Assembly: GCA_016188425.1 (NCBI GenBank)
Contig: JACPHX010000002.1
Location: 2,373-66,372, forward strand
DNA: 64,000 nt
DNA from: Candidatus Uhrbacteria bacterium
Lineage (GTDB): Bacteria; Patescibacteriota; Patescibacteriia; UBA9934; GWF2-40-263
Reading direction: 5' to 3'
This document shows positions 3,967 to 37,932 of this stretch, piece after piece. Numbering within the stretch: position 1 is the stretch's first letter; each line of letters begins with the position of its first letter. The translations under genes were made by a program, and so were the position numbers. The notes under the pieces are model-generated. The model did no database searches. It was given only the letters and a program-made list of their open reading frames with translations, and was not told where the DNA came from.

Positions 3967-5182
3967 AGCGATAAAACCAGCCGAGTTGGCTCAAGAGAGA
4001 CGCGCGGCAACGGGATTCAACGTGGGGCAGTCGCCAGGGCACACGATAAAAGCGCCAAGGGAGCAAACGAGGAAAGTACTCCCGCAACATCTGCCGCAGC
4101 CGATAGAGGCGGTGATTCTCATCCCCTCCTCCGTAGGTGCAGTTGAGATGATCCCGCATGGGGAGTACCTGGAGCTCGAAGGGCTTCTGGTGCAGATGCA
4201 ACAGCATCTTGATGGCGCGGAACCGTTCGTGAGAATTGGCGTTCTCCTGATCGACCGACACGCCGCCGACAAGATTCTCCCCTTCAAGAACGCAGGTTCC
4301 TCCTGCCCGATGGATCAAATCCTGCACGCGGGAGGCGACCTGGCGCGCCACCGTCTCATCCGCCACCACCAGACGAACCGCCCGGCGATCACGCACCGTA
4401 TAGGCGTCATCTTTCTTGCGCCGAAGCTGTCGCATGATCTTGAGAAGCGTCATGAACGGCAGCTTCACTCGATGGCTCAAGTGCACCGGCTCACCCGTGG
4501 TCAAACGGCGAAAGAGAAACGAGTGCTCTTGCATAACGAAGGATCCTCGAGGGATCGGCCCGTCTTCGATCATCGCTTCTCGTGCCCGATAAGAATCCAC
4601 CGGGTCGTACCAGCCACGCACGGTGGCATCGTGGAACGACCCATCGAAAAGTCCATCCTCGAGGATCGCGAGCAGCCCCTCCAAGTCGCTGGAGGCACTT
4701 TGCAAACTTTCCATGCGATCCAGAAACATCTGCCCGACCGCGAGGTCGAACAAACTGATCGCCTGCGACCAGATGAGACGTTTGGTGCGCGACCCATTGG
4801 CGACATACACCTTTGCTCGATTCAGGAGCCGCTCCAATGTCATCGCAAGACTCACCGACATCTCCAGGTCGAAGATGGATTCGTAGGGTGACGCGAAACG
4901 GCCGATGATGTGATCACGCGCGAGCCGTGATTCGTGGATAGCGGTATTCCCCCGCTCTCGATCGTGATCGGACAACCCCTCCAAGAGAAGTTGCCGATGA
5001 GTGACGGCGGATTCAGACGGTTCGTACCAATCCGGAATCCAATCCAACAGCTGCTTCATGCTGTGCAAAGAACCATGCTCCTCTCTGAACAGAAACCACC
5101 GCAGGTAAGCTGCGGTGGCGGATGGGTTGAGTAGGTTGCAGACTACTTCACTCCACAGACACCGCCGCACAGGAAAAGACAT
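3965..5182 (-). CDS. RelA/SpoT-homologue (small-alarmone-synthetase / toxSAS-like) nucleotidyltransferase-domain protein. Has an N-terminal extension and an Arg/Trp-rich C-terminal tail
   Basis: Residues ~228-345 match the RSH synthetase motifs: HRVKLPFMTLLKIMRQLRRKK (gRvK..S..rK), DRRAVRLVV (DxxGxRiv), SHERFRAIKMLLHL (GYrSlHlvv), FELQVLPMRDH (vEiQiRT..H). The true start is uncertain and the N-terminal ~40 aa have odd composition. Confidence 0.55.
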   Translation of the reverse strand: MSFPVRRCLWSEVVCNLLNPSATAAYLRWFLFREEHGSLHSMKQLLDWIPDWYEPSESAVTHRQLLLEGLSDHDRERGNTAIHESRLARDHIIGRFASPYESIFDLEMSVSLAMTLERLLNRAKVYVANGSRTKRLIWSQAISLFDLAVGQMFLDRMESLQSASSDLEGLLAILEDGLFDGSFHDATVRGWYDPVDSYRAREAMIEDGPIPRGSFVMQEHSFLFRRLTTGEPVHLSHRVKLPFMTLLKIMRQLRRKKDDAYTVRDRRAVRLVVADETVARQVASRVQDLIHRAGGTCVLEGENLVGGVSVDQENANSHERFRAIKMLLHLHQKPFELQVLPMRDHLNCTYGGGDENHRLYRLRQMLREYFPRLLPWRFYRVPWRLPHVESRCRASLLSQLGWFYR

Positions 5183-5867: not shown

Positions 5868-6815
5868 CTAATATGGCAAGCGCTCGGCGGAAACAGTTGG
5901 CTCCCCGCCCGTGCTTTTCACAAGAATATCTCCTTGCTGATCCGTCCGGAACACCTCTATGTTTCGATCGGCGAACCGATGCAGCACCACGACGTGCGGA
6001 TGACCGTAAGAATTATCCGCCCCTGCCGAAATCAGCGCAATTTCCGGGGTTATCGTATCCAAAAAATACTGGCTATTGGAACTGGAACTGCCATGATGCC
6101 CTGCTTTGAGGATATCAATGTCTCCCATCGAAGGCGCAATCGCTTCTTCCACCTCTTTCTCGATGTCTCCGGTCAAAAGAATCGTCGTGTCGCCATACGT
6201 CAACTTTAAAACCACTGAGTGGTTGTTTGCCGATGTGTCATCGGGCGTATCCGGCATTGCATCCGGCGACAGCACATCAACCGTCACGCCGCCGACATCA
6301 TACTTCTCCCCCGCTCGTACCGATCGGACGACGGCTCCTTCTTCCCCCACAGCTAAATTGAATCGCTTCGCGATCTTAGTATCCCTCTGTGTTTCACCGT
6401 TCCCCCAAATATCTTTCACCTCGTATCGCTCGAGTACGGAGGGCAAGCCGCCGATATGATCAGCATCCAAGTGGCTGGATACCACATAATCGATCGTCCT
6501 ATCCCACGGCTTCATCACCGCGCCGAGCTTGGCAAGCACTTTGGAATCGCGCCCTCCGTCCATGAGCAGCTGCGTGCCATCGGGTGCCTCAAGAAAAAGC
6601 GCGTCTCCTTGCCCGATATCGAACATCCACAATCGCATCTCTCCCAGAGAACCAGACGCCGCAGAGGCCCCAGAGGTGGCGGAGGAGCGGATCAACAAAA
6701 AAATACCCACGCTCATCCAGACGACGAGCAGAAAAACTACGAACCAGAGTTTGCTGCGTCCTTGAGGGCGTCCACGCGAGGTTTGAAGAGCCATAGAAAT
6801 ATCAGGATAAGACAA
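5868..6815 (-). CDS. ComEC/Rec2 C-terminal metallo-beta-lactamase domain protein. Possibly the distal part of a split comEC
   Basis: N-terminal TM helix, then an MBL core: MFDIGQGDALFLE...SHLDADHIGG...AGHHGS. Confidence 0.65.
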   Translation of the reverse strand: MSYPDISMALQTSRGRPQGRSKLWFVVFLLVVWMSVGIFLLIRSSATSGASAASGSLGEMRLWMFDIGQGDALFLEAPDGTQLLMDGGRDSKVLAKLGAVMKPWDRTIDYVVSSHLDADHIGGLPSVLERYEVKDIWGNGETQRDTKIAKRFNLAVGEEGAVVRSVRAGEKYDVGGVTVDVLSPDAMPDTPDDTSANNHSVVLKLTYGDTTILLTGDIEKEVEEAIAPSMGDIDILKAGHHGSSSSNSQYFLDTITPEIALISAGADNSYGHPHVVVLHRFADRNIEVFRTDQQGDILVKSTGGEPTVSAERLPY

Positions 6816-8209
6816 AAGGCACTCACGATCGCGGCCGTATGAGGATCCACCGATTCATAAACCGCATGAGGGACAGAGGCACCTTGCCGTATAACCCATA
6901 ATATCATCGAAGAGAGAAGCACCGCTGGAACCGACAGATACGCGAGGATCGAGGCAGGCAGGAGAAAAGCCATCGGCAACAAAATAAGGCCAACAGCCAT
7001 CAGCAAAGGAACCAAGGGCAAAACGAATACATTGACGACTGGCGCGATCAAGGAGATCGAACCGAAATGCCAAAACATAATCGGCGCGGTCACAAGCGAA
7101 GCCACCAAGCTCCCCACGAGCGCCTCGCGCAGACCAAACACCTCTGGCATCCACGAAAAATATCCCTCGAGGTGATCTGGAATGAACAAAACAGCCGCCG
7201 TCGCCACAAAGGAAAGTTGAAACCCTGGATCAACGAGGAGGACGAACGGATTCAGAAGCAGCATGATCGGAAGCGCAAACGCGAGGAGGCGCATCGGGCT
7301 CCGCGGTCGACGAACCCACTCCGCCAGAAGCACAATCCCCGCCATGATCCCCGCGCGGATGACCGCCGCGGTCGCCCCTGCCAGGAACACATACACAACG
7401 ACCAACACTCCGGTCATGAAAATCCCCCTCCGCCGACCGAATCGTTCAATCGCAAACGCAAAAAAGAAAAACGTGAACAGCGACACATTGAATCCGCTCG
7501 CAGCAAGGATGTGCGACGTTCCCGTCCGCGAGAACGTATCCTGCAGATCATCGGACAACCCGGATGAACCGCCGAGAATCAAACCAGTCACAAACGACGA
7601 GTGCGGTTCTGGAAGCAGTCGGTTGAATCGATCCATCAGCAGAATCCTTGCTCGATACAGCCCTCCTCGCCAGGTCCACAGCCCCGCCTCGGCCGCGACC
7701 GACGACGGGAAGGTGCACAGCGCGTAGACCCCCTTGGTCGCGAGAAACTGGTCGTAAGGAAAACCGTTGAAGGGTTCTGGCCGTTTGAGTTTGCACGTGG
7801 CCGTCAACTGGTCATCTATGAACACCTCCTCCCCCATCGGGAGAAAGACGAGCACTCCCCCTCTTGCCTCCTCCCCACCAATCGTCAAATCCTTCACCGT
7901 CGCTCGTACGCCAGACATCCGCGTATCCACATCCGCGACGCGTCCGTGGATTTCCACTGCATGCTCTGGAAGCGTATCGACCCAAGTGGGCGTCCCCGGA
8001 GCCAGAATGACGCGCAAAATTCCCAAAAACAAACACAACGCAATTAAGCCAACTCGACGAAGCAGACCAGATGAAAAAACCAACAATAACAACGGAACAG
8101 ACAGCGCATACCAGACCCATTCCCCGGGGATCGGGATGAGCAAAGCAACCAAAATACCAAACATCACCGCCAAACAGGCGGTGACGAAAGTCCCAGAGGG
8201 AGAACGCAA
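6737..8209 (-). CDS. ComEC/Rec2 competence-channel membrane domain protein (proximal part)
   Basis: 490 aa polytopic membrane protein with an N-terminal DUF4131-like beta region and competence-domain-like TM block. Overlaps the MBL-domain ORF by 79 nt in a different frame. Confidence 0.6.
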   Translation of the reverse strand: MRSPSGTFVTACLAVMFGILVALLIPIPGEWVWYALSVPLLLLVFSSGLLRRVGLIALCLFLGILRVILAPGTPTWVDTLPEHAVEIHGRVADVDTRMSGVRATVKDLTIGGEEARGGVLVFLPMGEEVFIDDQLTATCKLKRPEPFNGFPYDQFLATKGVYALCTFPSSVAAEAGLWTWRGGLYRARILLMDRFNRLLPEPHSSFVTGLILGGSSGLSDDLQDTFSRTGTSHILAASGFNVSLFTFFFFAFAIERFGRRRGIFMTGVLVVVYVFLAGATAAVIRAGIMAGIVLLAEWVRRPRSPMRLLAFALPIMLLLNPFVLLVDPGFQLSFVATAAVLFIPDHLEGYFSWMPEVFGLREALVGSLVASLVTAPIMFWHFGSISLIAPVVNVFVLPLVPLLMAVGLILLPMAFLLPASILAYLSVPAVLLSSMILWVIRQGASVPHAVYESVDPHTAAIVSAFCLILIFLWLFKPRVDALKDAANSGS

Positions 8210-8240
8210 CGTTTTGTCGATGAGTGACCGGGCGATATCG

Positions 8241-10679
8241 TTAGCGAATCACGAAGCTGATGAGGCGGCCGGGGATGTAAATAACTTTGATGATCTCCTT
8301 CCCTTCCAAAAATTTCTCGACGTTTTGTTGAGCCTGCGCGCGATCGCGCGCATCTACATCGGACAATGTGGGTGAGATCTCGATCGTCCCGCGTACTTTC
8401 CCGTTGATCTGCACTGCGACTGTCACCAAATCATCCACAAGCATCTTCTCCTCAAAGGAAGGCCATCCGCTTTCAAAGACGGATGTCTTGTAGCCAAGCG
8501 TCTCCCAAATCTCTTCACAAAGGTGAGGGGCGAACGGAGCAAGGGCACGCACGAGCATTTCGTAGGAAGATCGCGGCAGCACCTCCGCCGAACTCATTGC
8601 GTTTACAAGGATCATCGACGCCGAGATCGCGGTATTGAACTTCATCGCCTCCAGATCGTTCGTGATCGAATGGATCGCCTTATGCGTTGCCTTCTCGATC
8701 GATGGATTCGTTGCGTCCGCGACAGACTCGCGCAGCTTCCAGAGCTTCTCCAAGAAGCGGCGTACGCCGACCGCTCCGTTGGTATCCCAAGGTTTCTGAT
8801 CTTCCAACGGCCCCATGAACATCTCGTACATGCGCAACGTGTCGGCGCCGTACTGCTCGACGACCTCGTCGGGGTTCACGACGTTCCCTCGCGACTTACT
8901 CATGCGCACGCCATCCGGCCCCATGATCGTTCCTTGATTGCGCAACTTCGTAAATGGTTCCTCGAAATCGATATGCCCCAAATCCTTGAGCGCGTAGCAA
9001 AAGAATCGTGAGTATAAAAGATGCATCACCGCGTGCTCAGCGCCCCCAACGTATAAATCGACAGGCATCCAGTAACGAATCTTCTCCTGATCCGCCATCA
9101 CCTCCTCGTTCTTTGGATCGCAGAAGCGGAGGAAGTACCAAGAGGAGTCGACAAACGTGTCCATCGTATCGCTCTCGCGGCGCGCGGGTTTGTGGCACGT
9201 CGGACACTTCACGTCATGAAACGACTCACTGCGCGCGAGAGGTGATTCGCCTGTGGGCTTGAAATCGACATCCGTCGGAAGTCGCACGGGGAGATCGGAA
9301 GCGGGAACGGCAACCGGGCCGCAGTCCTCGCACCAGATAATCGGAATCGGCGCGCCCCAGTATCGCTGGCGCGAAAGGAGCCAGTCGCGGATGCGATAGT
9401 TCGTGACGCGACGGCCTTTGTTTTTTGCTTCAAGGGCGTCGGTGATTTGTTGTTTGGCATTCTCGTTGGTGAGGCCGTCAAAGATGCCGGATTGAACCAT
9501 AATTCCTGGATCCGTATATGCCCCATCGGACGGCATGAATGCCGTCCCTGCGGGGGGTGCGACGACCTGGGTGATAGGCAGGTTATATTTCTGTGCAAAC
9601 GCGTAATCGCGTTCGTCGTGGGCGGGGACGCCCATGACGGCGCCAGTGCCGTAGGTCATGAGGGCGTAGTCGGCGATCCAAATCGGCACATCTTTGCCCG
9701 TGAGCGGATGCTTGGCGTAGGCGCCGATGAATTGACCAGTCTTTTCTTTTTGCTCGGAGCGATCGAGTTCAGATTTTCGCGCCGTGGCCGCACGATAGTC
9801 CATGACGGCTTTTGCATACGCAGGATCGACGAGGACGTCGACGAGCGGATGCTCGGGAGCCAAAACAACATAACTGACCCCAAAAAGAGTATCTGGCCTT
9901 GTGGTAAAGACAGATATGATTGTTTCTCTACTCTGTGGTGGCCAAGGGGCACGCCCCTTGGCCACATTCACAATATCAAAGTCAATTTCTGTTCCTTCAG
10001 ATTTCCCGATCCAATTCTGCTGCATCGCCTTAATCGATTCCGGCCAGTCGATCTTCTCCAAACCAGCAAGCAAACGATCCGCATATTTTGTAATGCGGAA
10101 GAACCACTGTTCCAGATCCTTTTGGCGCACAACGTTCTTGCACCGATCGCATTTTCCATCAATGACCTGTTCGTTCGCGAGCACGGTCTGGCAACTATCG
10201 CACCAGTTCACAGGAGCCGAGGCACGATATATCAGGTCGTGTTTATAAAAAAGGAGGAACAACCATTGCGTCCATTTGTAATAAGAAGGATCCGCTGTAG
10301 AGATGACGCGCGACCAGTCAAAAGAAAGCCCAAGGGACTTCATCTGCCGTGTATAGTTGGCCATCGCATCATTCGTCGTCTGCTCGGGGTGGACACCCGT
10401 CTTGATCGCAAAATTCTCCGCCGGCAAACCGAACGCGTCGTACCCGATCGGGAACAAAACGTTCTTTCCCTGCATGCGCCGCCAGCGCGTCACGATATCG
10501 ACCGCCGAGTAGGATTCCACATGACCAACGTGGAGGCCGGTCGCGGAAGGATACGGGAACATCACCAGGTGATAGAGGGAATCCTGTGCCTTCGATGGAT
10601 CTTCCGTGGGGAAAAACGCGAAATTCTGTTCCCAACGCTGCTGCCATTTTTTTTCGATGGATTGGTGGTTGAAGGGCAT
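8241..10679 (-). CDS. leuS: Leucyl-tRNA synthetase
   Basis: HVGH (HIGH) motif, KMSKS, class I LeuRS architecture. Start re-placed at [17 protein letters not shown]. Confidence 0.95.
9938..9965. repeat. Palindrome family copy 2, embedded in-frame in leuS
   Basis: GTGGCCAAGGGGCACGCCCCTTGGCCAC with one central mismatch. It translates on the leuS strand as [10 protein letters not shown], inside the variable region before the TTRPDT motif. Confidence 0.85.
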
Positions 10680-14757: not shown

Positions 14758-15690
14758 CTATTTCTTGTGTTCCATCGCCTCCAACCACCGCTGCGCGTCC
14801 AACGCGGCCGCGCATCCTGTCCCCGCGGCCGTGACGGCCTGGCGGTATTTCCAGTCGGCGACGTCGCCGGCGGCGAAAACGCCTTCGACATTGGTCCACG
14901 TCGATCCTGGTTTTACCGTGAGATACCCTTTTTCCATTTCCAATTTTCCTTCAAAAATTTTCGTATTGGGCGAGTGGCCGATCGCGAGAAACATGCCGTC
15001 GACCGCCAGATCGGACTCTTCGTTGGTCTTCGTGCTGATGAGACGCAACCCCGTCACCTGTTTTTCATTCCCCATCACTTCCTTCACTCCCGTGTTAAAC
15101 AAAAAATTGATCTTCGGGTTGGTCTTCGCCCGGTCTTCCATGATCGGGGACGCACGCAACTTGTCAGACCGAACCAGTACCGTCACCGATGTCGCGAAGC
15201 GGGTCAGGAACGTCGCCTCTTCCATCGCGGAATCCCCTCCGCCCACGACCGCCACTTTTTTCCCTCGAAAGAAAAACCCGTCGCAAGTAGCGCAGGCGGA
15301 TACGCCGCGGCCTTTGTATTTCTCTTCACTGGGGAGACCCAGATAGTTCGCCGATGCCCCCGAGGCGATGACGACGGCCTTGGCCTGGTATTCCCCTTTC
15401 TCGGTACGGACAACAAACGGACGTCTAGAAACATCAACGCCCAGCACCTCCTCCGCCTTCACGTCGGTTCCAAAACGGACGGCCTGATCTTTGAAAAGCC
15501 GCATCAATTCAGGCCCTTGTATCCCTTTTGGAAACCCGGGGAAATTCTCCACCTCCGTCGTCGTCATGAGCTGCCCGCCCGGCTCCACCCCCTCAAACAA
15601 CACCGGCGCCAAATGCGCCCTTGCCGCATAAATTGCGGCGGTGTAGCCGGCAGGGCCGGATCCGATGATGATGAGCTGGTGCACATCCAT
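14758..15690 (-). CDS. trxB: Thioredoxin-disulfide reductase
   Basis: GSGPAGYTAAIYAAR FAD motif, CATC redox centre, GGGDSAMEEA NADPH motif. Confidence 0.9.
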   Translation of the reverse strand: MDVHQLIIIGSGPAGYTAAIYAARAHLAPVLFEGVEPGGQLMTTTEVENFPGFPKGIQGPELMRLFKDQAVRFGTDVKAEEVLGVDVSRRPFVVRTEKGEYQAKAVVIASGASANYLGLPSEEKYKGRGVSACATCDGFFFRGKKVAVVGGGDSAMEEATFLTRFATSVTVLVRSDKLRASPIMEDRAKTNPKINFLFNTGVKEVMGNEKQVTGLRLISTKTNEESDLAVDGMFLAIGHSPNTKIFEGKLEMEKGYLTVKPGSTWTNVEGVFAAGDVADWKYRQAVTAAGTGCAAALDAQRWLEAMEHKK

Positions 15691-31500: not shown

Positions 31501-31843
31501 CCGCGACCGCAAACGTGGTTTCAAACGCATCTACCGTCGCCCCCTCAAAGACAAGCGGTGAGCCGCCAAGCACGGTCGCATTGAACGTGACGGTATCTGC
31601 TGCATCGGAACCGATGTAGGCATTTCCAATAACTTCGATCTCATCTGCCACGCGTAAATCACCAATGCCACCGGAGGCGAAGCTGAACGCAACATCGGTG
31701 CCGACGATCACCGCCTTGTCATCTTCAAAGACGCCCATCGCGCCATCTTCCCAAAGATTCGTTCCGATGTCGGAAATCCGCAAAGGCGAACGTCGATTCA
31801 AAGGCATCAACCGTTCCCCCTTCAAAGACAAGTGGGGATGCAC
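28550..31843 (-). CDS. Giant beta-strand-repeat surface protein, distal fragment (modules plus an acidic Pro/Glu-rich tail)
   Basis: Repeated modules SPLVFEGATxDAFETTFAxxDPTADRTITFxxASGTVA. The N-terminal 119 nt overlap the upstream ORF in another frame. Confidence 0.55.
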   Translation of the reverse strand: MHPHLSLKGERLMPLNRRSPLRISDIGTNLWEDGAMGVFEDDKAVIVGTDVAFSFASGGIGDLRVADEIEVIGNAYIGSDAADTVTFNATVLGGSPLVFEGATVDAFETTFAVADPTADRTITFPNASGTVAVSATSPVTLSAAGDIGCATCLTSGGVAFTITDGTTPQTISNGDTMTFVDGTDINVVTSATDTVTVNNTSTLASVTGRGATTAALVNLDGGMAVDTSNFTVSGTTGDVLTAGDLTVNGNTAIGNAASDIFTITATIGGGTTPLTFEGAVADANETTFAFIEPTADRTITFKDGSGTVAFTSDITGSAWSVGANGLFYNTAAVIVGSDSAFSYASGGAGDLRVADELEVIGQAQFGDGIRFRSSTPTWQFVDAGLLAWSDGTNNLLQARDINTNFGLAMNAGAFIDRNSKIEEEFSKKRTTITVDTTGASGTGLGDGGGWGAYENANCTFTSTNDAINGIVNIANTGSGNGCLLMMDDALNNARSVLDADNLPVMLMKLRPNNTGANFYAYAGMADSTDGLTAAPTNFIGFSTEGSTTWAGVTISGGTQTTVACAGQTVSTSQYALMMVEVRSTSDVHFFIDPDVSDGVAFTECDGGSSTNIPTISLAPMFHWQSRSGGASGSMDVDFFRAWQDDNEQTPEAAVADAATPEGAPADAEDLTPAQTDLGIDGMKESWELKKVTADFSTGSAMTQMFPSDNTEIPEGTIVSLTGEGPKVEPSKLAADDLMVGVVTKTSGVEVSNGTFDGVRVAITGRVSVRASAANGIIHVGDYLTSSGKNGVAVKAGVGSPIIGRAMSEYDGEGEGNVVLFLSASAPWGGTSALVSSATEAEGSLVVSGSLLLGGGLELDQVGSATSPETIVYGDLLFGKAAANIDTAGFAAVAQGQRSVRVDFAEPYLHDPSVNITLSLESGDMGMDSIFGSGLRYIVTNKSKLGFNISIDVDAPQELNFSWIALAVKDGNISRNNGITNGRAPSAEADPVHRTEPEAESVPAEAETSGFEEPLSSEDEAEVPPSEEPGSSSAEQDPAQEEPTPIEPAPDAATTDDAAEVVPVVEDVPVAVPVIEAPPTPAPEAPAPEEAPAELVAP
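31636..31775. repeat. 140-nt identical block of a ~600-nt tandem gene-internal repeat; partner at 32236-32375
   Basis: Exact 140/140 identity at a 600-nt offset, flanked by ~90%-identical sequence. Confidence 0.85.
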
Positions 31844-33713
31844 CTAAATAGACCGCTCCGGTGAAGTCGTAGTTCCCAGTTCCCGTGTCTCCCGTGTTAA
31901 AGAGGAACACATCGTTGACGTTGACCGAGTCCCCGCTGACCGTGGTATTCGTTCCGTTGGAAAGATTAGTGTCATCCGATATATCCACCGATCCATTCGC
32001 AATCATCGTTCCGGTCACGGAACCGGCATCTCCTGTCGTCACAACCGTGCCGGTGACGTCCGGGACTGTAATGACGCGATCTGCCGTCGGATCGGTGATG
32101 GCGAGTGTTGTCTCGAACGCATTCGCCGTGGCTCCTTCAAAGACAAACGGGGAGCCGCCCAGGATGGTTGCATTCAATGTGACGGTATCCGCCGCATCGG
32201 ATCCGATGTACGCATTGCCAATGACCTCGATCTCATCTGCCACGCGTAAATCACCAATGCCACCGGAGGCGAAGCTGAACGCAACATCGGTGCCGACGAT
32301 CACCGCCTTGTCATCTTCAAAGACGCCCATCGCGCCATCTTCCCAAAGATTCGTTCCGATGTCGGAAGTCGGATCCGCGAACGCGAACGTCGATTCGAAA
32401 GCGTCAACGGTTCCTCCTTCAAAGACGAGCGGGGACGCGCCTTGCAGCACCGCTCCCGTGAAGTCATAATCCCCCGTTCCCGTATCACCTGTGTTCATCA
32501 AGAACACGTCGTTCACATCAATCGAATCCCCGTTGACGGTGGTATTCGTCCCGTTGGAAAGATTCGTGTCATTCGAGATATCCACCGACCCGTTGGCGAT
32601 CATCGCCCCTGTGACGGAACCCGTGTCACCTGTGGTCACGACGGTGCCGGTGACGTCTGGGAAGGTAATCGTCTGATCCGCAGTAGGATCCACGAGAGCC
32701 AGAGTCAACTCAAACGTATCCGCCGTGGCGCCTTCCAAAACCCAAGGAGCTGCGCCGAAAAAAACAGCGCCGGAAAAATCATAGTTCCCCGTCGCGACAT
32801 CGCCTGTGTTGAAAAGATAACTGTCGGCGATATCAAGCGTGACCGTATCGGTAATGCTGTCCCCTGTAACAGTGATGTTTGCTGATCCAGCAGAGAGGGA
32901 AAGCGTGTCCGTCGCCGAATCAGCGACTGGGGCCGTTCCAGACGTGGTCGCGATCGTCTCAAAAAGATTCTGCGAACCAGCAATATCGGAAAGGAAGGCG
33001 ACGGTTCCGCTCGCATCCTGAAAGGTGATCGTCCGATCCGCGGTCGGATCCGTCATGGCGAACGTCGTCTCGAACGCATCTGCCGTCGCACCCTCAAAGA
33101 CGAGCGGCGACCCGGTCTGCAAAGACGCGCCGGAAAAATCAAAATCCCCCGTGGCGGTATCGCCCGCACTGGCAAGGAAATCCGCCGCTCCCATCCCTTC
33201 CAGGGTCCCGGCGTTTATCGCGTAGCCAGACGAACGGATCCTCTGGCGTGGAGAGAGGTTTTCAAACACAGCCAAGGCACAGGAACCCGCTACCTGATCC
33301 CCGACCTCCACGTTGAGATAGGCCTCGTCAGTGGATTGGAAATTGAAATCCAGAAGATCCCCGCCTGCGCCCACATCGCCGATACCCGCGGTAAAGACGC
33401 CCTCTGTCACTTCGATGGTCATGGTCGAGGGCGCGCCAGCCGGCCACAGCTGCGCATCCCCCCCTCCGACCGTTTCATCATCAAAAAACGAAAATTTGAA
33501 ACAGTAATCCGTTCCGCTGGAGCCACCCAATAAATTCCCAGAACCATCCAATAGTCTTCCTTGATAGGTTACTTCTTCCGGAACGCCAACCGCCGCGCGC
33601 GCAGCGAATGCTGGAATGAAATACGACAAAAACACGACAAGCAAGGCCGTGGTAGTGATTTTAAAAATTCCCTTTTGTCTTCGGTGCATGAGTGCCTCCA
33701 CAAAATGGAACAC
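31725..33713 (-). CDS. Giant beta-strand-repeat surface protein, proximal fragment with signal peptide
   Basis: Signal peptide (KITTTALLVVFLSYFIPAFAARAA), same module family. Ends in an out-of-frame tail (FRHRNESLGRWRDGRL) where a paralogous repeat reads PTSDIGTNLWEDG. Confidence 0.55.
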   Translation of the reverse strand: MFHFVEALMHRRQKGIFKITTTALLVVFLSYFIPAFAARAAVGVPEEVTYQGRLLDGSGNLLGGSSGTDYCFKFSFFDDETVGGGDAQLWPAGAPSTMTIEVTEGVFTAGIGDVGAGGDLLDFNFQSTDEAYLNVEVGDQVAGSCALAVFENLSPRQRIRSSGYAINAGTLEGMGAADFLASAGDTATGDFDFSGASLQTGSPLVFEGATADAFETTFAMTDPTADRTITFQDASGTVAFLSDIAGSQNLFETIATTSGTAPVADSATDTLSLSAGSANITVTGDSITDTVTLDIADSYLFNTGDVATGNYDFSGAVFFGAAPWVLEGATADTFELTLALVDPTADQTITFPDVTGTVVTTGDTGSVTGAMIANGSVDISNDTNLSNGTNTTVNGDSIDVNDVFLMNTGDTGTGDYDFTGAVLQGASPLVFEGGTVDAFESTFAFADPTSDIGTNLWEDGAMGVFEDDKAVIVGTDVAFSFASGGIGDLRVADEIEVIGNAYIGSDAADTVTLNATILGGSPFVFEGATANAFETTLAITDPTADRVITVPDVTGTVVTTGDAGSVTGTMIANGSVDISDDTNLSNGTNTTVSGDSVNVNDVFLFNTGDTGTGNYDFTGAVYLGASPLVFEGGTVDAFESTFAFADFRHRNESLGRWRDGRL

Positions 33714-33810: not shown

Positions 33811-33888
33811 TGGTGCGGGCAGAGGGAGTCGAACCCCCAACCCTCAGCTTCGAAGGCTGATGCTCTATCCAGTTGAGCTATGCCCGCC
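33811..33888 (-). tRNA. tRNA-Arg (anticodon TCG), CCA encoded
   Basis: Reverse complement GGCGGGC-ATA-GCTC-AACTGGATA-GAGC-A-TCAGC-CTTCGAA-GCTGA-GGGTT-GGGGG-TTCGACT-CCCTC-TGCCCGC-A-CCA. Confidence 0.8.
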
Positions 33889-33889
33889 T

Positions 33890-34135
33890 ATGGCTGGAGG
33901 CCCTAGAATCGCGATCTGCTGGCTTACGTCTCCGCGCCAGGCCTCAACGTACCATTGAGGTACGCCTCGGCCTGGTGCTCGCCGTGCGCCAGCATCTCAT
34001 CGATTCTAGAGCCTCCAGCCCGATGTGTTCGTGTGAATAATGGCCTAGATCCATAACGGCCGGAGCGCCTAGAATCGCGATCTGTGGCTTGCGCCGACAT
34101 TTCAATGATTCTAGGCATCCCGGCCTTTTGTTTGT
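33890..34135. repeat. Two inverted-repeat-bounded elements sharing a CCTAGAATCGCGATCTG core, between tRNA-Arg and tRNA-Lys
   Basis: GGCTGGAGGCCCTAGAATCG...CGATTCTAGAGCCTCCAGCC (33891-34019) and GGCCGGAGCGCCTAGAATC...GATTCTAGGCATCCCGGCC (34057-34135). Confidence 0.5.
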
Positions 34136-34197
34136 GGCCGAACTTTAGCAACTTTCTTGACGATGCGCAAGAATATTGGCATTCTTTTCGCACCTAG

Positions 34198-34273
34198 GCA
34201 CTGGTAGCTCAGCTGGTAGAGCAGCGGACTCTTAATCCGTTGGTCGCGGGTTCGAATCCCGCCCGGTGCACCA
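34198..34273 (+). tRNA. tRNA-Lys (anticodon CTT), CCA encoded
   Basis: GCACTGG-TA-GCTC-AGCTGGTA-GAGC-A-GCGGA-CTCTTAA-TCCGT-TGGTC-GCGGG-TTCGAAT-CCCGC-CCGGTGC-A-CCA. Confidence 0.85.
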
Positions 34274-34610
34274 GCATAAAGCCATCAACTTGAGTAGCTG
34301 CAGAATCGGCAGAGGTCTGCCGGCCCCTGTGGATAATCTAGTTGGTGGCTTTTTGTTTGCAGATTTGATGGGTTACTTGCTTTCTCTCTATAAAAAGAGG
34401 GAGGATGGGACGGTTCGAATCCTCATTGCCTCAAACTGTCATTGTGTATGCCACTCGAACCTAAACCGAATTCACGCGTTTCAATCACAAGCCTTAAATC
34501 GAGCCATATCAAACGCATCCGCGCAGCCATTGAGAAGGAATCTGGCCAGCTGCTCGATCTTACCGATACGGAACTGGAGGTGTATGCGGTGGAGATTTTG
34601 AGAGCGATGG

Positions 34611-34928
34611 ATGTTGTATATTTATGAAACAATGACTCCCCATTCTATGAATGTAGATCATGTTATTCTACTTATTTCGTTAGGAATACCTGCTTGTTTG
34701 ATTGCATTCTGTTGGTGCGTTTTACTTTTTACGATGCGTAGGACTACTGGTGAATTGAGACTATTTCTTTCCGCGGAAAATCTGGTTAAAGGCATGGTTG
34801 TTATATTTGTCTTACTAACTACAACTGCCCTGAGTATTCTGGGCATACTCTCGGGCGAGTTAGCTGGTACTATTATTGGTGGCATTATTGGATATACTCT
34901 TGGAACTAAGTTTTCTGTGGAAAAATAG
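34611..34928 (+). CDS. Island small membrane protein (2-3 TM)
   Basis: AT-rich ORF with hydrophobic helices (ILLISLGIPACLIAFCWCVLLF; VVIFVLLTTTALSILGIL). Confidence 0.4.
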   Translation: MLYIYETMTPHSMNVDHVILLISLGIPACLIAFCWCVLLFTMRRTTGELRLFLSAENLVKGMVVIFVLLTTTALSILGILSGELAGTIIGGIIGYTLGTKFSVEK

Positions 34929-34932
34929 TAGT

Positions 34933-35151
34933 ATGAAAATTTTGCTCAGTATGTTGGTGGCGGTCGGATTCGTTGTGGGAATAATCATTGGCGGTTCTCT
35001 AAAAGGTAAGGAGAACTCGGATTGTTATAAGTTTTCTCTGCTCCAAGCCGTGTCCCAGGTTGATCAAGGTGGTTATATTGCTGATGTGCAGGCTCGACAA
35101 AAGGCACAAGATGAAGCGTTGGTTCCGTTACTCACGACTTGCCTCCAATGA
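34933..35151 (+). CDS. Island small single-TM protein
   Basis: MKILLSMLVAVGFVVGIIIGGSL... 72 aa; the ATG was checked. Confidence 0.35.
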   Translation: MKILLSMLVAVGFVVGIIIGGSLKGKENSDCYKFSLLQAVSQVDQGGYIADVQARQKAQDEALVPLLTTCLQ

Positions 35152-35226
35152 TAAGATACATGTTTCAATGCCACTCCTTTCGTGTTGATTGATGTTGCAA
35201 TTTATCGTACGCTGGAAAAAAGACTT

Positions 35227-35415
35227 ATGGATCTCAAACAACAGTTTTTGAAGGTGTATTCAACGCTTCCTTTAGGCATACGTAAAGAGATCGTGATTGT
35301 TTTAGATGCGCCGGTGGGACCGGTCAGTTGGGAGGCGGCATACCTCGAAGTTGAAAACCGTACCGCTGTTTCCGAAGTGATTCTAACGAAGCTTCACGAG
35401 CTTCAAATCATATGA
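35227..35415 (+). CDS. Island small protein A (62 aa from the ATG; alternative GTG start at 35182)
   Basis: First gene of a coupled triplet; its stop overlaps the next start (ATGA). Confidence 0.4.
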   Translation: MDLKQQFLKVYSTLPLGIRKEIVIVLDAPVGPVSWEAAYLEVENRTAVSEVILTKLHELQII

Positions 35416-35645
35416 CCGACAATCAAAAAATCGATACACGGTACTCGGATGAAGAAATCCGTAAGTTGGTCGTGGCGCGACTCTCCGTGCTTTCTTCAGA
35501 TATGCAGATTTCGATTGGCTCCTCTGGTACCTTTACGCGTGACGAGCTCATTGGGCACGTGAACGCAAACGATGATCTTGGACGGAAGATCGAAGAGATC
35601 GAACTCGAGTGGTTGCGCTCGTGGAAAGATAAGGCACACGTATGA
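35412..35645 (+). CDS. Island small protein B (77 aa)
   Basis: ATGA overlaps on both sides. No recognised family. Confidence 0.45.
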   Translation: MTDNQKIDTRYSDEEIRKLVVARLSVLSSDMQISIGSSGTFTRDELIGHVNANDDLGRKIEEIELEWLRSWKDKAHV

Positions 35646-36283
35646 TGCTTGTGACGCGGCCAGACTACGATCCGGCGACACGGTATCTTTCCGCATGGTC
35701 TTCCATCTTGATGGAGGAGGCAGAGCGTCGAAAATTACGAGTCATTGATCTTCCGGGCGAGAAAGCAAGAAAGGCCGACCTTGTGGGTCGGATCAACAAA
35801 TTAAAGCCTGATTTACTCGTCTTGAACGGGCATGGGAGCGACGAATGTATTGCTGGACAAGATGCGGAGGTTCTCGTGAAGGCCAAGGACAACGCCGTGC
35901 TCCTCAAAGGAAAGGTGACGTACGCGGTCTCCTGCAATTCCGCCGCTGTTTTGGGAGAGGAAGTCGGCACCTACTCTGACACGGCGTATATAGGTTTTGA
36001 GAATGAATTCGCGATAATCCAATCGCAGGACCATGCGAGCCGTCCCCTGGATGATCCGTTCGCGAAGCCCTTCATGGAATTTTCGAATCAGGTGGTGACG
36101 GGTCTTCTTAAAGGACACAAAACAGCGGAGTGTGTGAGTCGTGCGAAGGAGACGGGTAAGGCGAAGATCAACGCGCTTCTCACCAGCGATTCCGATCCTG
36201 ACAAGCAGGCGATCGCACGGTATCTTTGGTGGGATATTCAAGGACTTGTGTGTAAAGGTGACCAGAATAAGAAGATATTATAG
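35642..36283 (+). CDS. Island protein C: alpha/beta protein with an HG...C putative catalytic dyad (caspase / clan-CD-like or DJ-1/PfpI-like cysteine hydrolase)
   Basis: Hydrophobic strand + NGHG (PDLLVLNGHGSDE), then ~35 aa later hydrophobic strand + Cys (KVTYAVSCNSAAV). 213 aa. Confidence 0.4.
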   Translation: MMLVTRPDYDPATRYLSAWSSILMEEAERRKLRVIDLPGEKARKADLVGRINKLKPDLLVLNGHGSDECIAGQDAEVLVKAKDNAVLLKGKVTYAVSCNSAAVLGEEVGTYSDTAYIGFENEFAIIQSQDHASRPLDDPFAKPFMEFSNQVVTGLLKGHKTAECVSRAKETGKAKINALLTSDSDPDKQAIARYLWWDIQGLVCKGDQNKKIL

Positions 36284-36332
36284 AAGAAAATTCGCAACCA
36301 GTGTTTCGACTTCATCCACGTTAGTGCACCAG

Positions 36333-36362
36333 AAAAGACACTCTATTTTTGGAGTGTCTTTT
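36333..36362. terminator. Bidirectional terminator at the island edge / xth 3' end
   Basis: AAAAGACACTC-TATTTTT-GGAGTGTCTTTT. Confidence 0.65.
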
Positions 36363-37139
36363 CTATGTTCCTGCTATCTCAATCCCCACCGGACAATGGT
36401 CCGACCCCATCACGTCATTGAGAATAAACGCCTTCTTGATCCGTTTCATGATCGCCTTATCCGCCCAAAAATAATCGATTCTCCACCCAATATTCCTCGT
36501 CCGAGCGTACGTCTTCATATCCCACCAGGAATAGGCCTCGATCGTCTTTGGGTGCAGCGAACGGAAGGTGTCGACATACCCGTGTTTCTCAAGCTTATCC
36601 AACCACTTGCGTTCCATGGGAAGAAACCCGGATGTCTTCTCGTTCTCTTTCGGATGCGACAAATCGACAGGACGATGCGCGGTGTTTACATCCCCGCAGA
36701 TGATGACGGGTTTGTGTTTGCGATACCCCTCGATGAAGCCGAGGAACCGATCGTAAAAATGCATCTTAAAATCCAACCGCTCGCGATTGCGCGCGCCGTT
36801 TGGGAAATACACATTGAAAAGATAAAAATCCTTGTGCTCTGTCAGAATGATGCGCCCCTCCCCATCGAGCGTCAGGTCGCCGAAGTTCGACATCTCCATG
36901 AGCGGCTTCTCTTTCGAGAAGGTCGCGGTTCCACTGTACCCCTTCTTCAACGCCGAATTCCAAATCCCCATGTAGCCGTCGGGATGGATGATGTCGTGGG
37001 AGAGTTGCTCGACATGGGCTTTCGTTTCTTGAAGGCACAGGATGTCGGGGCTCGCTTCTTGAAGCCAGGGGAGGAAACCTTTTTTCACGGCGGCGCGGAC
37101 GCCGTTCACGTTCCAAGAAAGCAGGGTCATGTTTTTCAT
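36363..37139 (-). CDS. xth: Exodeoxyribonuclease III (AP endonuclease)
   Basis: LLSWNVNG...DILCLQETK...GDVNTAHRPVD...SDHCPV EEP-family motifs. Start re-placed at MKNMTLLSW; the ORF-track N-extension is spurious. Confidence 0.85.
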   Translation of the reverse strand: MKNMTLLSWNVNGVRAAVKKGFLPWLQEASPDILCLQETKAHVEQLSHDIIHPDGYMGIWNSALKKGYSGTATFSKEKPLMEMSNFGDLTLDGEGRIILTEHKDFYLFNVYFPNGARNRERLDFKMHFYDRFLGFIEGYRKHKPVIICGDVNTAHRPVDLSHPKENEKTSGFLPMERKWLDKLEKHGYVDTFRSLHPKTIEAYSWWDMKTYARTRNIGWRIDYFWADKAIMKRIKKAFILNDVMGSDHCPVGIEIAGT

Positions 37140-37242
37140 AGGTGAGGTTTCAGACGTCGCAGAGGTTTCAGACGTTTCAGAGGCACATGCCTTCAAACGC
37201 CTCTGTCGCCTCTGGGGCGTCTGCGACCTCTGCTGCCACAAC

Positions 37243-37932
37243 CTACCACCCTTTCTCCGCCAACGCCTTCGCGGCCGCATCCACCTGCGCTTCATGCTTG
37301 GACAGTCCCGTTCCTTTGGCGACCTGCTCTTTCTCCAAATAGACTCCGACGATGAAGGTCTTGGAGTGGTCCGGGCCTTCCTCCGAGAGGACTTTGTACG
37401 AGGGCGTGATACCCACATGCTCCTGGGCGGCTTCTTGGAAGCGGCTTTTGGGATCGATGTAGAGGCGGTGTTCGAGGATGCGTGGAAGATGCACCATGAC
37501 GGTGCGAAGGATGAATTGCTTGGACGGTTCCCATCCTTGGTCGAGATAAATGGCGCCGATAAGCGCCTCGAAGGCGTTGGCGAGGATGTAGCGGCGCGCC
37601 TTCGTGTCCTTGTCGCGGGACTCTCCCCGGGAAAGGAGCAGATCCCCCTCGATATCGAGACTGTGGCAAATTTCGGCGAGCATGTCGGCGTTTACCAGCG
37701 ACGCGCGCCAATTGGTGAGTTCCCCTTCCGGGTTCTCGTAGTTCTGATACAGGTATTCTGTCACGACGAGTTCAAGAACGGCATCGCCCAAAAATTCTAA
37801 ACGCTCGTTGTGGCCAAGCTCAAAAGACGGGTGTTCGTTCAAATACGATCGGTGAACAAGGGCTTGGCGTAAGGTATCTTTATTCTGAAACGTCACGCCG
37901 AGAACTTGTTCGATGTGGGAGAGATCGCTCAT
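37243..37932 (-). CDS. rnc: Ribonuclease III
   Basis: ERLEFLGDAVLELVV signature plus a C-terminal dsRBD. Confidence 0.9.
   Translation of the reverse strand: MSDLSHIEQVLGVTFQNKDTLRQALVHRSYLNEHPSFELGHNERLEFLGDAVLELVVTEYLYQNYENPEGELTNWRASLVNADMLAEICHSLDIEGDLLLSRGESRDKDTKARRYILANAFEALIGAIYLDQGWEPSKQFILRTVMVHLPRILEHRLYIDPKSRFQEAAQEHVGITPSYKVLSEEGPDHSKTFIVGVYLEKEQVAKGTGLSKHEAQVDAAAKALAEKGW

Follow-up and report, generated by a model that had tools for sequence, protein, structure and literature searches.

A translationally coupled gene trio with a predicted caspase-fold cysteine peptidase in a tRNA-Lys-associated islet of an Uhrbacteria genome, and its widespread relatives

A 64-kb stretch of contig JACPHX010000002.1 from Candidatus Uhrbacteria bacterium (the window, to which all coordinates refer) contains, directly behind a tRNA-Lys gene, a low-GC islet of about 2 kb in which three translationally coupled genes, A, B and C, encode two small acidic proteins and a 213-residue protein with a predicted caspase-type fold. 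Judged by sequence, C is a new family of putative clan-CD cysteine peptidases that lies outside C25, C14 and CHAT. The trio is widespread, common in Patescibacteria and unannotated: its family of ~2,400 clusters at 50% identity is without an entry in Pfam, NCBIfam, PADLOC or PHROGs, and literature searches found no paper on it. What is new is the clan-CD sequence family and the three-gene arrangement; the clan-CD fold itself is known. The trio was first described in an earlier note, made from the letters of this DNA without database searches; the size of the family shows that it is no one-off oddity.

The bacteria of the candidate phyla radiation (CPR) and the DPANN archaea make up a large share of microbial diversity. 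They rarely carry clustered regularly interspaced short palindromic repeats (CRISPR), and for the majority of the small genes conserved in them no function is known. Should the trio act in defence or addiction by proteolysis, an effector of caspase type would join the known CPR/DPANN immune repertoire, and a 213-residue minimal caspase fold would become available for studying restraint and release, together with two new small regulator folds.

Gene C has a predicted caspase-type fold

Searches with the Pfam, NCBIfam, PADLOC and PHROG models gave zero matches for C, and a sequence-profile search of PDB sequences was empty. The predicted structure of C (predicted local distance difference test score of 97.2) is a complete caspase fold, with six strands plus helices in a single 213-residue chain. 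In this model, as in clan CD generally, an alpha/beta/alpha sandwich surrounds a central six-stranded caspase-type sheet. The two motifs singled out in the earlier note, NGHG (residues 62-65) and VSC (residues 96-98), position His64 (N62-G63-H64-G65) after the third strand (58-62) and Cys98 after the fourth strand (92-96), which is the clan-CD order. In a fold search with the model, the top figure belongs to gingipain RgpB (16.9), followed by gingipain Kgp (16.3), activated SAVED-CHAT (15.4), metacaspases (13.5 and 12.9), legumain and an asparaginyl ligase (12.8), separase (about 12), MALT1 (11.8) and caspases (10-11). The same fold search rules out a DJ-1/PfpI identity for C, which the earlier note had raised as the second option; the clan-CD His-Cys dyad that it had placed first agrees with the predicted fold and with complete conservation of H64 and C98 (100%) in 138 representatives that are 28-46% identical to the C protein of the window. 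In the same set, G63, G65, G72 and D138 are conserved at 99-100%. A comparison with a viral structure library returned weak matches only, to giant-virus caspase and clostripain proteins.

An exhaustive profile search places 2,386 clusters at 50% identity in the C family, 383 of them with E ≤1e-30, and nearly all members are 205-225 residues long. The Pfam model Peptidase_C25 (PF01364) matches one of 45 C members weakly (E 0.0017) and reaches its threshold with none, and the Peptidase_C14 and CHAT models match none of the 45, even at E up to 1. The single weak Peptidase_C25 match is in line with a gingipain as the top structural match. C departs from the gingipain architecture in that it begins directly at strand 1, with no hydrophobic segment or signal peptide. 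The assignment of the fold and the distribution of the family are solid; based on the model and on the conserved residues, C is probably an active peptidase. Three conserved aspartates, D10, D36 and D138, stand at positions that we take to correspond to those of pocket residues in metacaspases and gingipains, and by this analogy they hint at a basic P1 residue.

One C homologue, at positions 539-1213 of locus L043, has an in-frame TGA where its closest relatives (L017 and L018) have Gly ('EVGK'). This codon is possibly read as Gly (genetic code 25) in that organism, in which case the gene would be no pseudogene.

Genes A and B are small conserved proteins of no recognized family

In GenBank, gene A starts at a GTG at 35182 and encodes 77 residues; its homologues begin at an MDLK/MELK position, which gives 62. 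Conservation spans the whole length of both A and B, with F7, L14, P15, R19, P32 and W35 invariant in A and L19, R23, L24, S28, G36, G39, D44, G57 and W67 invariant in B. Both proteins are soluble, with median isoelectric points of 4.95 (A) and 4.83 (B). The earlier note had recognized neither partner, and the searches likewise give no family to either: A and B have zero matches in Pfam (all family members, lenient thresholds), NCBIfam, PADLOC and PHROG, and their profiles have none among PDB sequences. The fold search with B returned noise only and no significant match, and the model and PDB profile searches found no homology of A or B to known toxin or antitoxin families.

Two other ideas about these proteins were rejected. 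A relationship between A and B as paralogues is unsupported (hhalign probability of 3%), and a role for A as a DNA-binding regulator is unlikely because A is acidic and has no helix-turn-helix or ribbon-helix-helix match.

A, B and C form one conserved unit

Related loci were gathered by exact look-ups of C, A and B homologues and by scans of species-representative genomes and metagenomes, and the presence of each gene was judged by hidden Markov model searches over all open reading frames (ORFs) of a locus. The peptide pattern used in the locus search matches one of 147 representatives of the wider family; the locus set thus samples one subfamily, the one nearest the window. It contains 60 unique loci, 48 of them complete. 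Genes A, B and C have the same order and strand in all 29 of the loci collected first and in every further locus with enough DNA. A sits upstream of B-C wherever upstream DNA exists, and four loci that were found through B likewise carry A-B-C. ATGA overlaps or near-zero gaps are the rule within the trio, so the three ATGA-linked genes reported earlier for the window (A of 62 residues, or 77 from the GTG, B of 77 and C of 213) hold as one unit across loci.

The unit does not extend further. Among the neighbouring genes, each family is seen in three of the 48 loci at most, and no fourth conserved partner gene was found among their neighbours. The two membrane genes of the islet, TM1 and TM2, which were considered as further members, are missing from all other trio loci. 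Based on this absence and on the variable neighbours, the conserved unit is A-B-C and not five genes; all five genes that the earlier note had listed as cargo are present in the islet, but its two membrane genes lie outside the conserved module.

Among bacteria, the records that carry the trio are labelled Uhrbacteria, Andersenbacteria, Buchananbacteria, Gottesmanbacteria, Shapirobacteria, Microgenomates and Gracilibacteria, and among archaea Woesearchaeota, Nanoarchaeota and "uncultured archaeon". The archaeal label of three loci rests on record titles, as the Pfam matches of their neighbouring genes are not diagnostic. In seven loci (L011, L022, L050, L054, L055, L057 and L058), a TATAAT(T) box, often with a preceding TG, is found 20-50 nt before A, and the trio there seems to have its own promoter. 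The copy in the window has no obvious box and may share a transcript with the membrane genes.

Likely insertion at the 3′ end of a tRNA gene

The islet is likely to be an insertion at the 3′ end of tRNA-Lys. This gene (anticodon CTT) points with its 3′ end into the islet and forms a left boundary that resembles an attL site. As the earlier note had observed, it is followed by a low-GC block of about 2 kb: the GC content of 34274-36362 is 0.465, the lowest of any 2 kb in the window and about 3.6 standard deviations (sd) below the window mean (0.551, sd 0.024). Across ~34300-36450 the GC content is 0.37-0.50, compared with 0.55-0.62 in the flanks. The sequence GTGCACCAG at the end of the tRNA gene recurs 40 nt past the stop codon of C, as an attR-like right boundary. 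Both copies of this repeat had been reported before as a match to the last 9 nt of the tRNA; they are present, but the tRNA contributes its last 8 nt and the ninth nucleotide lies beyond it, and by length alone such a match is expected by chance. Right after the second copy stands a perfect hairpin with a stem of 13-15 bp and a z-score of about -6, the terminator of the earlier description. This hairpin would serve as a bidirectional terminator between C (+ strand) and the exonuclease III family gene xth (- strand), and it possibly represents the native terminator of tRNA-Lys, displaced from its gene. Under insertion, the uninserted junction would have read tRNA-Lys...GGTGCACCAGAAAAGACACTC...xth.

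The islet shares with known tRNA-integrated islets the tRNA 3′-end site, a short tail repeat at the far boundary, a deviant composition and accessory cargo. It differs from them in having no integrase, recombinase or recombination-directionality gene and in a repeat of only 8-9 nt. The length of this repeat is too short to carry the assignment, and support comes instead from its position and from its replication in a second locus, L057.

The competing explanation, which we regard as unlikely, is that no site-specific insertion took place, that the repeat arose by chance and that the low GC content reflects accessory genes lying beside a tRNA gene. A match of 9 nt that the final 50 nt of tRNA-Lys share with the 6 kb beyond the trio has P = 0.64 in shuffles, and several chance repeats of 11-12 nt are present in the same 3 kb as the islet. 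In the window, GTGCACCAG has three matches against 0.34 expected, the third at 15676 on the - strand. The family-model search of ORFs in 34274-36362 found no integrase-like ORF, as the earlier note had also concluded, and an exact 41-nt tRNA-Lys probe for an unoccupied site had zero matches in the metagenome collection. The closest trio locus (L033, 68% identity) shares nothing with the window in its flanks. Most tRNA-adjacent loci lack a terminal repeat: beyond the window, L057 and L042, the search at the remaining ones found none. The islet genes also differ among themselves in composition. The GC content at third codon positions (GC3) is 0.30-0.35 in the membrane genes, 0.48-0.59 in A, B and C and 0.61-0.70 in host genes on both sides, and the membrane genes and the trio may therefore have arrived separately.

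Set against the chance explanation are the placement of the repeat and its recurrence. The 9-nt repeat gains weight because it is the extreme tail of the tRNA, because its second copy lies 40 nt past the last gene and abuts the hairpin, and because the layout recurs in L057, where a tRNA-Val gene is followed by 1.2 kb of other DNA and then by A-B-C, with a C protein ~39% identical to that of the window. There, the terminal GCGCACCA of the locus's own tRNA-Val is found again 31 nt past the C stop codon, with a terminator hairpin directly after it; the att-like setting proposed earlier is thus real and has a parallel. The repeats of the window and L057 differ by one base, each matching its own local tRNA. 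In addition, the distal copy and hairpin of the window (CACCAGAAAAGACAC...) closely resemble the sequence 3′ of the genuine tRNA-Val in L057 (CACCAGAAAGGACAT...), which fits a displaced original tRNA end and terminator. A further repeat is found in L042, where the last 9 nt of the neighbouring tRNA-Asn gene appear again between genes, 3 kb past the trio. The chance of an 8-mer within 200 nt is ~0.003 per locus, and that of at least two such loci among eight is estimated at ~3e-4, before post-hoc choices. Finally, in all eight loci (8/8) with a nearest tRNA gene no more than 1.6 kb away, this gene points with its 3′ end toward the trio (binomial 0.004), and a tRNA gene lies less than 150 nt from the trio in 4/48 loci against ~0.9 expected (a rough estimate).

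In L027, L042, L059 and L009, a tRNA gene (Glu, Asn, Asn and Thr, respectively) is located 63-146 nt from the trio with its 3′ end toward it; tRNA-Asn is used by two distant lineages (L042 and L059).

A tentative role in genetic conflict

The variable context and the association with tRNA 3′ ends point to an accessory, horizontally mobile module. It is tentatively read here as a self-contained protease module of conflict type with A and B as acidic partners, a reading to which we give somewhat less than an even chance. In the Uhrbacteria genome, A-B-C would have been carried in by an insertion of ~2 kb at the tRNA-Lys 3′ end. C would be an active, cytoplasmic clan-CD cysteine endopeptidase that reduces the caspase fold to its most compact form, with a His64/Cys98 dyad and an acidic pocket (D10, D36, D138) that could favour Arg or Lys at P1. 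Translational coupling would keep A and B in fixed proportion to C, and the two small proteins would bind C and either restrain it or couple it to a trigger. Once the restraint was lost, by infection or by loss of the module, C would cleave cellular or invader proteins and growth would stop, following a toxin-antitoxin (TA) or abortive-infection logic. A broader proposition is less likely than not: A-B-C would be a new and widespread protease-based immune or addiction system, largely confined to the ultra-small episymbiotic prokaryotes of CPR and DPANN, that combines the smallest known complete caspase-fold enzyme with two partners of new fold and has spread across lineages, perhaps across domains, by tRNA insertion.

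The gene context is suggestive of a TA or abortive-infection role. Defence or TA genes lie within a few genes of the trio in 7-8 of 12 Pfam-annotated contexts (a raw count, with no background comparison; Table 1). A scan of 109 neighbours of unannotated loci gave type I restriction (R) subunits, SoFic, PsyrT, NYN and DpnI; it also gave fumarase, a tRNA synthetase and a proton pyrophosphatase. As a separate observation, the trio of L094 is bracketed by 478-bp direct repeats that are 91% identical (4616-5093 and 6595-7072); each carries a DUF7387-HicA pair, and Fic and the rve integrase are encoded just upstream.

Several observations weigh against a conflict role. CPR genomes are reported to be defence-dense in general (PMC12259885), which bears on the context counts, and three loci have housekeeping neighbours only: triose-phosphate isomerase (TIM), a TPR protein and a tRNA cluster in L009, DprA and TopA in L011, and a glycosyltransferase and an MreB cluster in L095. 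PADLOC-DB 2.0 has no match to any of the six islet proteins, with E allowed up to 1; none of the PADLOC, Pfam and PHROG models ties A, B or C to defence or TA systems, and searches of plasmids, phage genomes and viral contigs for relatives of C were empty. The GC content of the trio follows that of the host (r = 0.85), and A and B are conserved at 50-75% identity across orders; both findings fit long residence in the host. The catalytic assignment of H64 and C98 is a prediction from topology and conservation, and contact of A and B with C is something that we infer. Survival of A and B after loss of C, described below, is not what a pure antidote role predicts. In L049, an IS630-like DDE transposase of ~1 kb (1040-2035) is inserted within B and leaves A and C intact, which is awkward for B as an essential inhibitor, though this insertion sequence may also silence C.

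Some of these points would equally suit a lineage-specific system of housekeeping or regulatory proteolysis in ultra-small prokaryotes, with C as a processing or quality-control protease and A and B as two cofactors or substrates. The host-tracking GC content, the three trios amid housekeeping genes and the negative phage and plasmid searches speak for it, as do the large, length-uniform family and the strong purifying selection on A, B and C. It is nevertheless improbable: conserved synteny is nil, and C has decayed repeatedly. The GC content of the trio is systematically below that of its flanks (32/43 loci, mean difference of -2.9 points, Wilcoxon p = 2e-5), and the copy in the window occupies the most deviant 2 kb of 64 kb. 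The tie to tRNA 3′ ends and att-like repeats likewise points away from housekeeping, together with the restriction-modification, TA and abortive-infection genes that are often nearby.

Decay of C bears on a third reading. In at least seven independent loci, C is inactivated by nonsense mutation, frameshift, deletion or recombination and A and B are intact (Table 1), and in L089-91 the trio seems to persist in a population without C. This retention fits a selectable or addictive function of A-B on its own, with A and B as an autonomous TA-like pair and C as a protease that cleaves the antidote on a signal. A precedent comes from Microcystis aeruginosa (PMC7935541), in which a ParE/ParD-like pair with direct repeats on its flanks lies next to the gene of the orthocaspase MaOC1, and this protease cuts the antitoxin of the pair. 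MaOC1 resembles C in being a caspase-fold protease encoded beside two small proteins in a direct-repeat-flanked block, where it controls a growth-arrest module. It differs in belonging to family C14 and in having a recognizable ParE/ParD pair: C is not C14, A and B match no TA family, and in the trio the small genes precede the protease gene, to which they are coupled in translation. A and B do have the size of a typical type II pair and are coupled to each other. Type II toxins are usually basic. A and B are both acidic, and neither matches a toxin or antitoxin family or fold. The excess of disrupted C over disrupted B (7 versus 1) is a trend only once gene lengths are considered (binomial estimate ~0.1), and no A-B locus without any trace of C was found, in searches biased against such loci. 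An autonomous A-B pair is consequently doubtful, more so than a housekeeping role.

In L093, where C is recombined, the reading frame runs on into an unrelated sequence of 290 residues with a weak polysaccharide-lyase match.

It is very improbable that C is instead a transpeptidase or ligase (of the legumain-ligase or glycosylphosphatidylinositol transamidase type) or a non-catalytic scaffold acting on A and/or B, as its nearest structural neighbours, gingipains and SAVED-CHAT, are hydrolytic endopeptidases, its dyad is fully conserved, which speaks against a scaffold, and A and B are conserved end to end, unlike precursor peptides.

Comparison with known systems

The closest fold to C is that of the gingipains RgpB and Kgp (MEROPS C25, clan CD), at 11-13% sequence identity. 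Gingipains exceed 400 residues and act as secreted virulence proteases; C, in contrast, has 213 residues, is cytoplasmic and lacks their signal peptide, pro-domain, Ig-like domain and type IX secretion C-terminal domain. Relative to the CHAT proteases of immunity (SAVED-CHAT, TPR-CHAT/Craspase (Csx29) and DdvA), C has no fused SAVED, TPR or transmembrane sensor and no partners from CRISPR or from cyclic-oligonucleotide-based antiphage signalling systems (CBASS), and the Pfam CHAT model does not match it. Its partners are instead two small proteins whose fold was not recognized.

A cysteine protease co-transcribed with a dedicated small protein that guards the cytoplasm is found in the staphopains and staphostatins. 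The trio resembles this protease-inhibitor operon in its organization. Staphopains are secreted enzymes with a papain fold and staphostatins have a beta-barrel structure; no homology of A or B to staphostatins was found. Partners like A and B occur in none of these systems: the CHAT and caspase-like effectors of type III CRISPR and CBASS, MaOC1, and the protease-inhibitor operons.

Layout of the islet and its flanks

The features of the islet are collected in Table 1, together with the trio neighbourhoods and the inactivated copies of C. Hydrophobic segments are confined to TM1 and TM2 among the islet genes, and TM1 gave zero matches in searches of the Pfam, NCBIfam, PADLOC and PHROG models. 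In the spacer between tRNA-Lys and TM1, two ORFs (34266-34601 and 34442-34627) gave zero family matches.

Table 1 Features of the window, genes beside the trio in related loci and inactivated copies of C
Locus	Feature	Position	Strand	Details
Window	662-residue ORF	31725-33713	-	
Window	tRNA-Arg(TCG)	33811-33887	-	ARAGORN and Rfam
Window	Long hairpin, first	33892-34020		
Window	Long hairpin, second	34058-34128		
Window	tRNA-Lys(CTT)	34198-34273	+	ARAGORN; Rfam tRNA model, 75 bits
Window	Direct repeat, copy 1	34266-34274	+	GTGCACCAG; last 8 nt of tRNA-Lys and 1 nt beyond
Window	Spacer	34274-34610		337 nt, GC 0.48; no convincing gene or integrase remnant
Window	TM1	34611-34928	+	105 residues, at least two hydrophobic segments (hydropathy); GC3 0.30
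Window	TM2	34933-35151	+	72 residues, N-terminal hydrophobic segment (hydropathy); GC3 0.35
Window	Gene A	35227-35415	+	62 residues, acidic, soluble; first gene of the trio
Window	Gene B	35412-35645	+	77 residues, acidic, soluble; start overlaps A stop by ATGA
Window	Gene C	35642-36283	+	213 residues, predicted dyad His64/Cys98; start overlaps B stop by ATGA
Window	Direct repeat, copy 2	36324-36332	+	GTGCACCAG; 40 nt past C stop, right boundary, attR-like
Window	Perfect hairpin flanked by A- and T-runs	36331-36364		Inverted repeat; fold energy -23.7 kcal/mol, z -5.97
Window	Exonuclease III family ORF (xth)	36363-37418	-	
L001-3	MmeI-type restriction-modification enzyme	Immediately upstream of trio		
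L004/5	AIPR abortive-infection gene	Immediately downstream of trio		
L006	Vsr, Eco47II, Dcm, PD-(D/E)XK, GIY-YIG			
L007	Methyltransferase, ParE/Phd, HicAB			
L031/32	Type I restriction-modification, Shedu SduA, GmrSD, DpnI	Upstream		
L031/32	HD, Tad4	Downstream		
L092	HicAB; UPF0175/DUF3368 pair			
L093	Phd/ParE; PemK			
L094	Fic, rve integrase, duplicated DUF7387-HicA pair	Pair on both sides of trio		
L030	C with in-frame TAG			A, B intact
L071	C with frameshift			A, B intact
L073	C with TGA			A, B intact
L086	C with internal deletion			Deletion takes out His and Cys; A, B intact
L087	C with N-terminal deletion			A, B intact
L089, L090, L091	C truncated to ~40 residues	About 6965-7117		Three different contigs; A, B intact
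L093	C recombined after about residue 60	7231-8277		Break just before NGHG; A, B intact

To the right of the islet, the flank consists of housekeeping genes, namely those of the exonuclease III family protein (xth), RNase III and NusB, all on the - strand. To the left, the spacer between the divergent tRNA-Arg and tRNA-Lys genes (33888-34197) contains two related long hairpins that share the 17-mer CCTAGAATCGCGATCTG, which is found nowhere else in the window. The RNA of this spacer has a fold energy of -148 kcal/mol (z -8.7) and zero matches among Rfam families, and the hairpin pair could be a small palindromic repeat element or a structured RNA. Further left, the 662-residue ORF encodes a hydrophobic segment at the N-terminal end, and units of ~100 residues are repeated several times within it ('FEGATADAFETT...DPTADRTITFPD'); it has zero matches in a Pfam search and is probably a repetitive surface protein. 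In the exonuclease III family ORF, the start at 37418 adds an extension of 95 codons that is rich in Arg, Ser and Lys and reaches into the RNase III gene at its 3′ end. As the Pfam domain begins at residue 100, the true start is probably Met96 (MKNMTLLSWNVNG).

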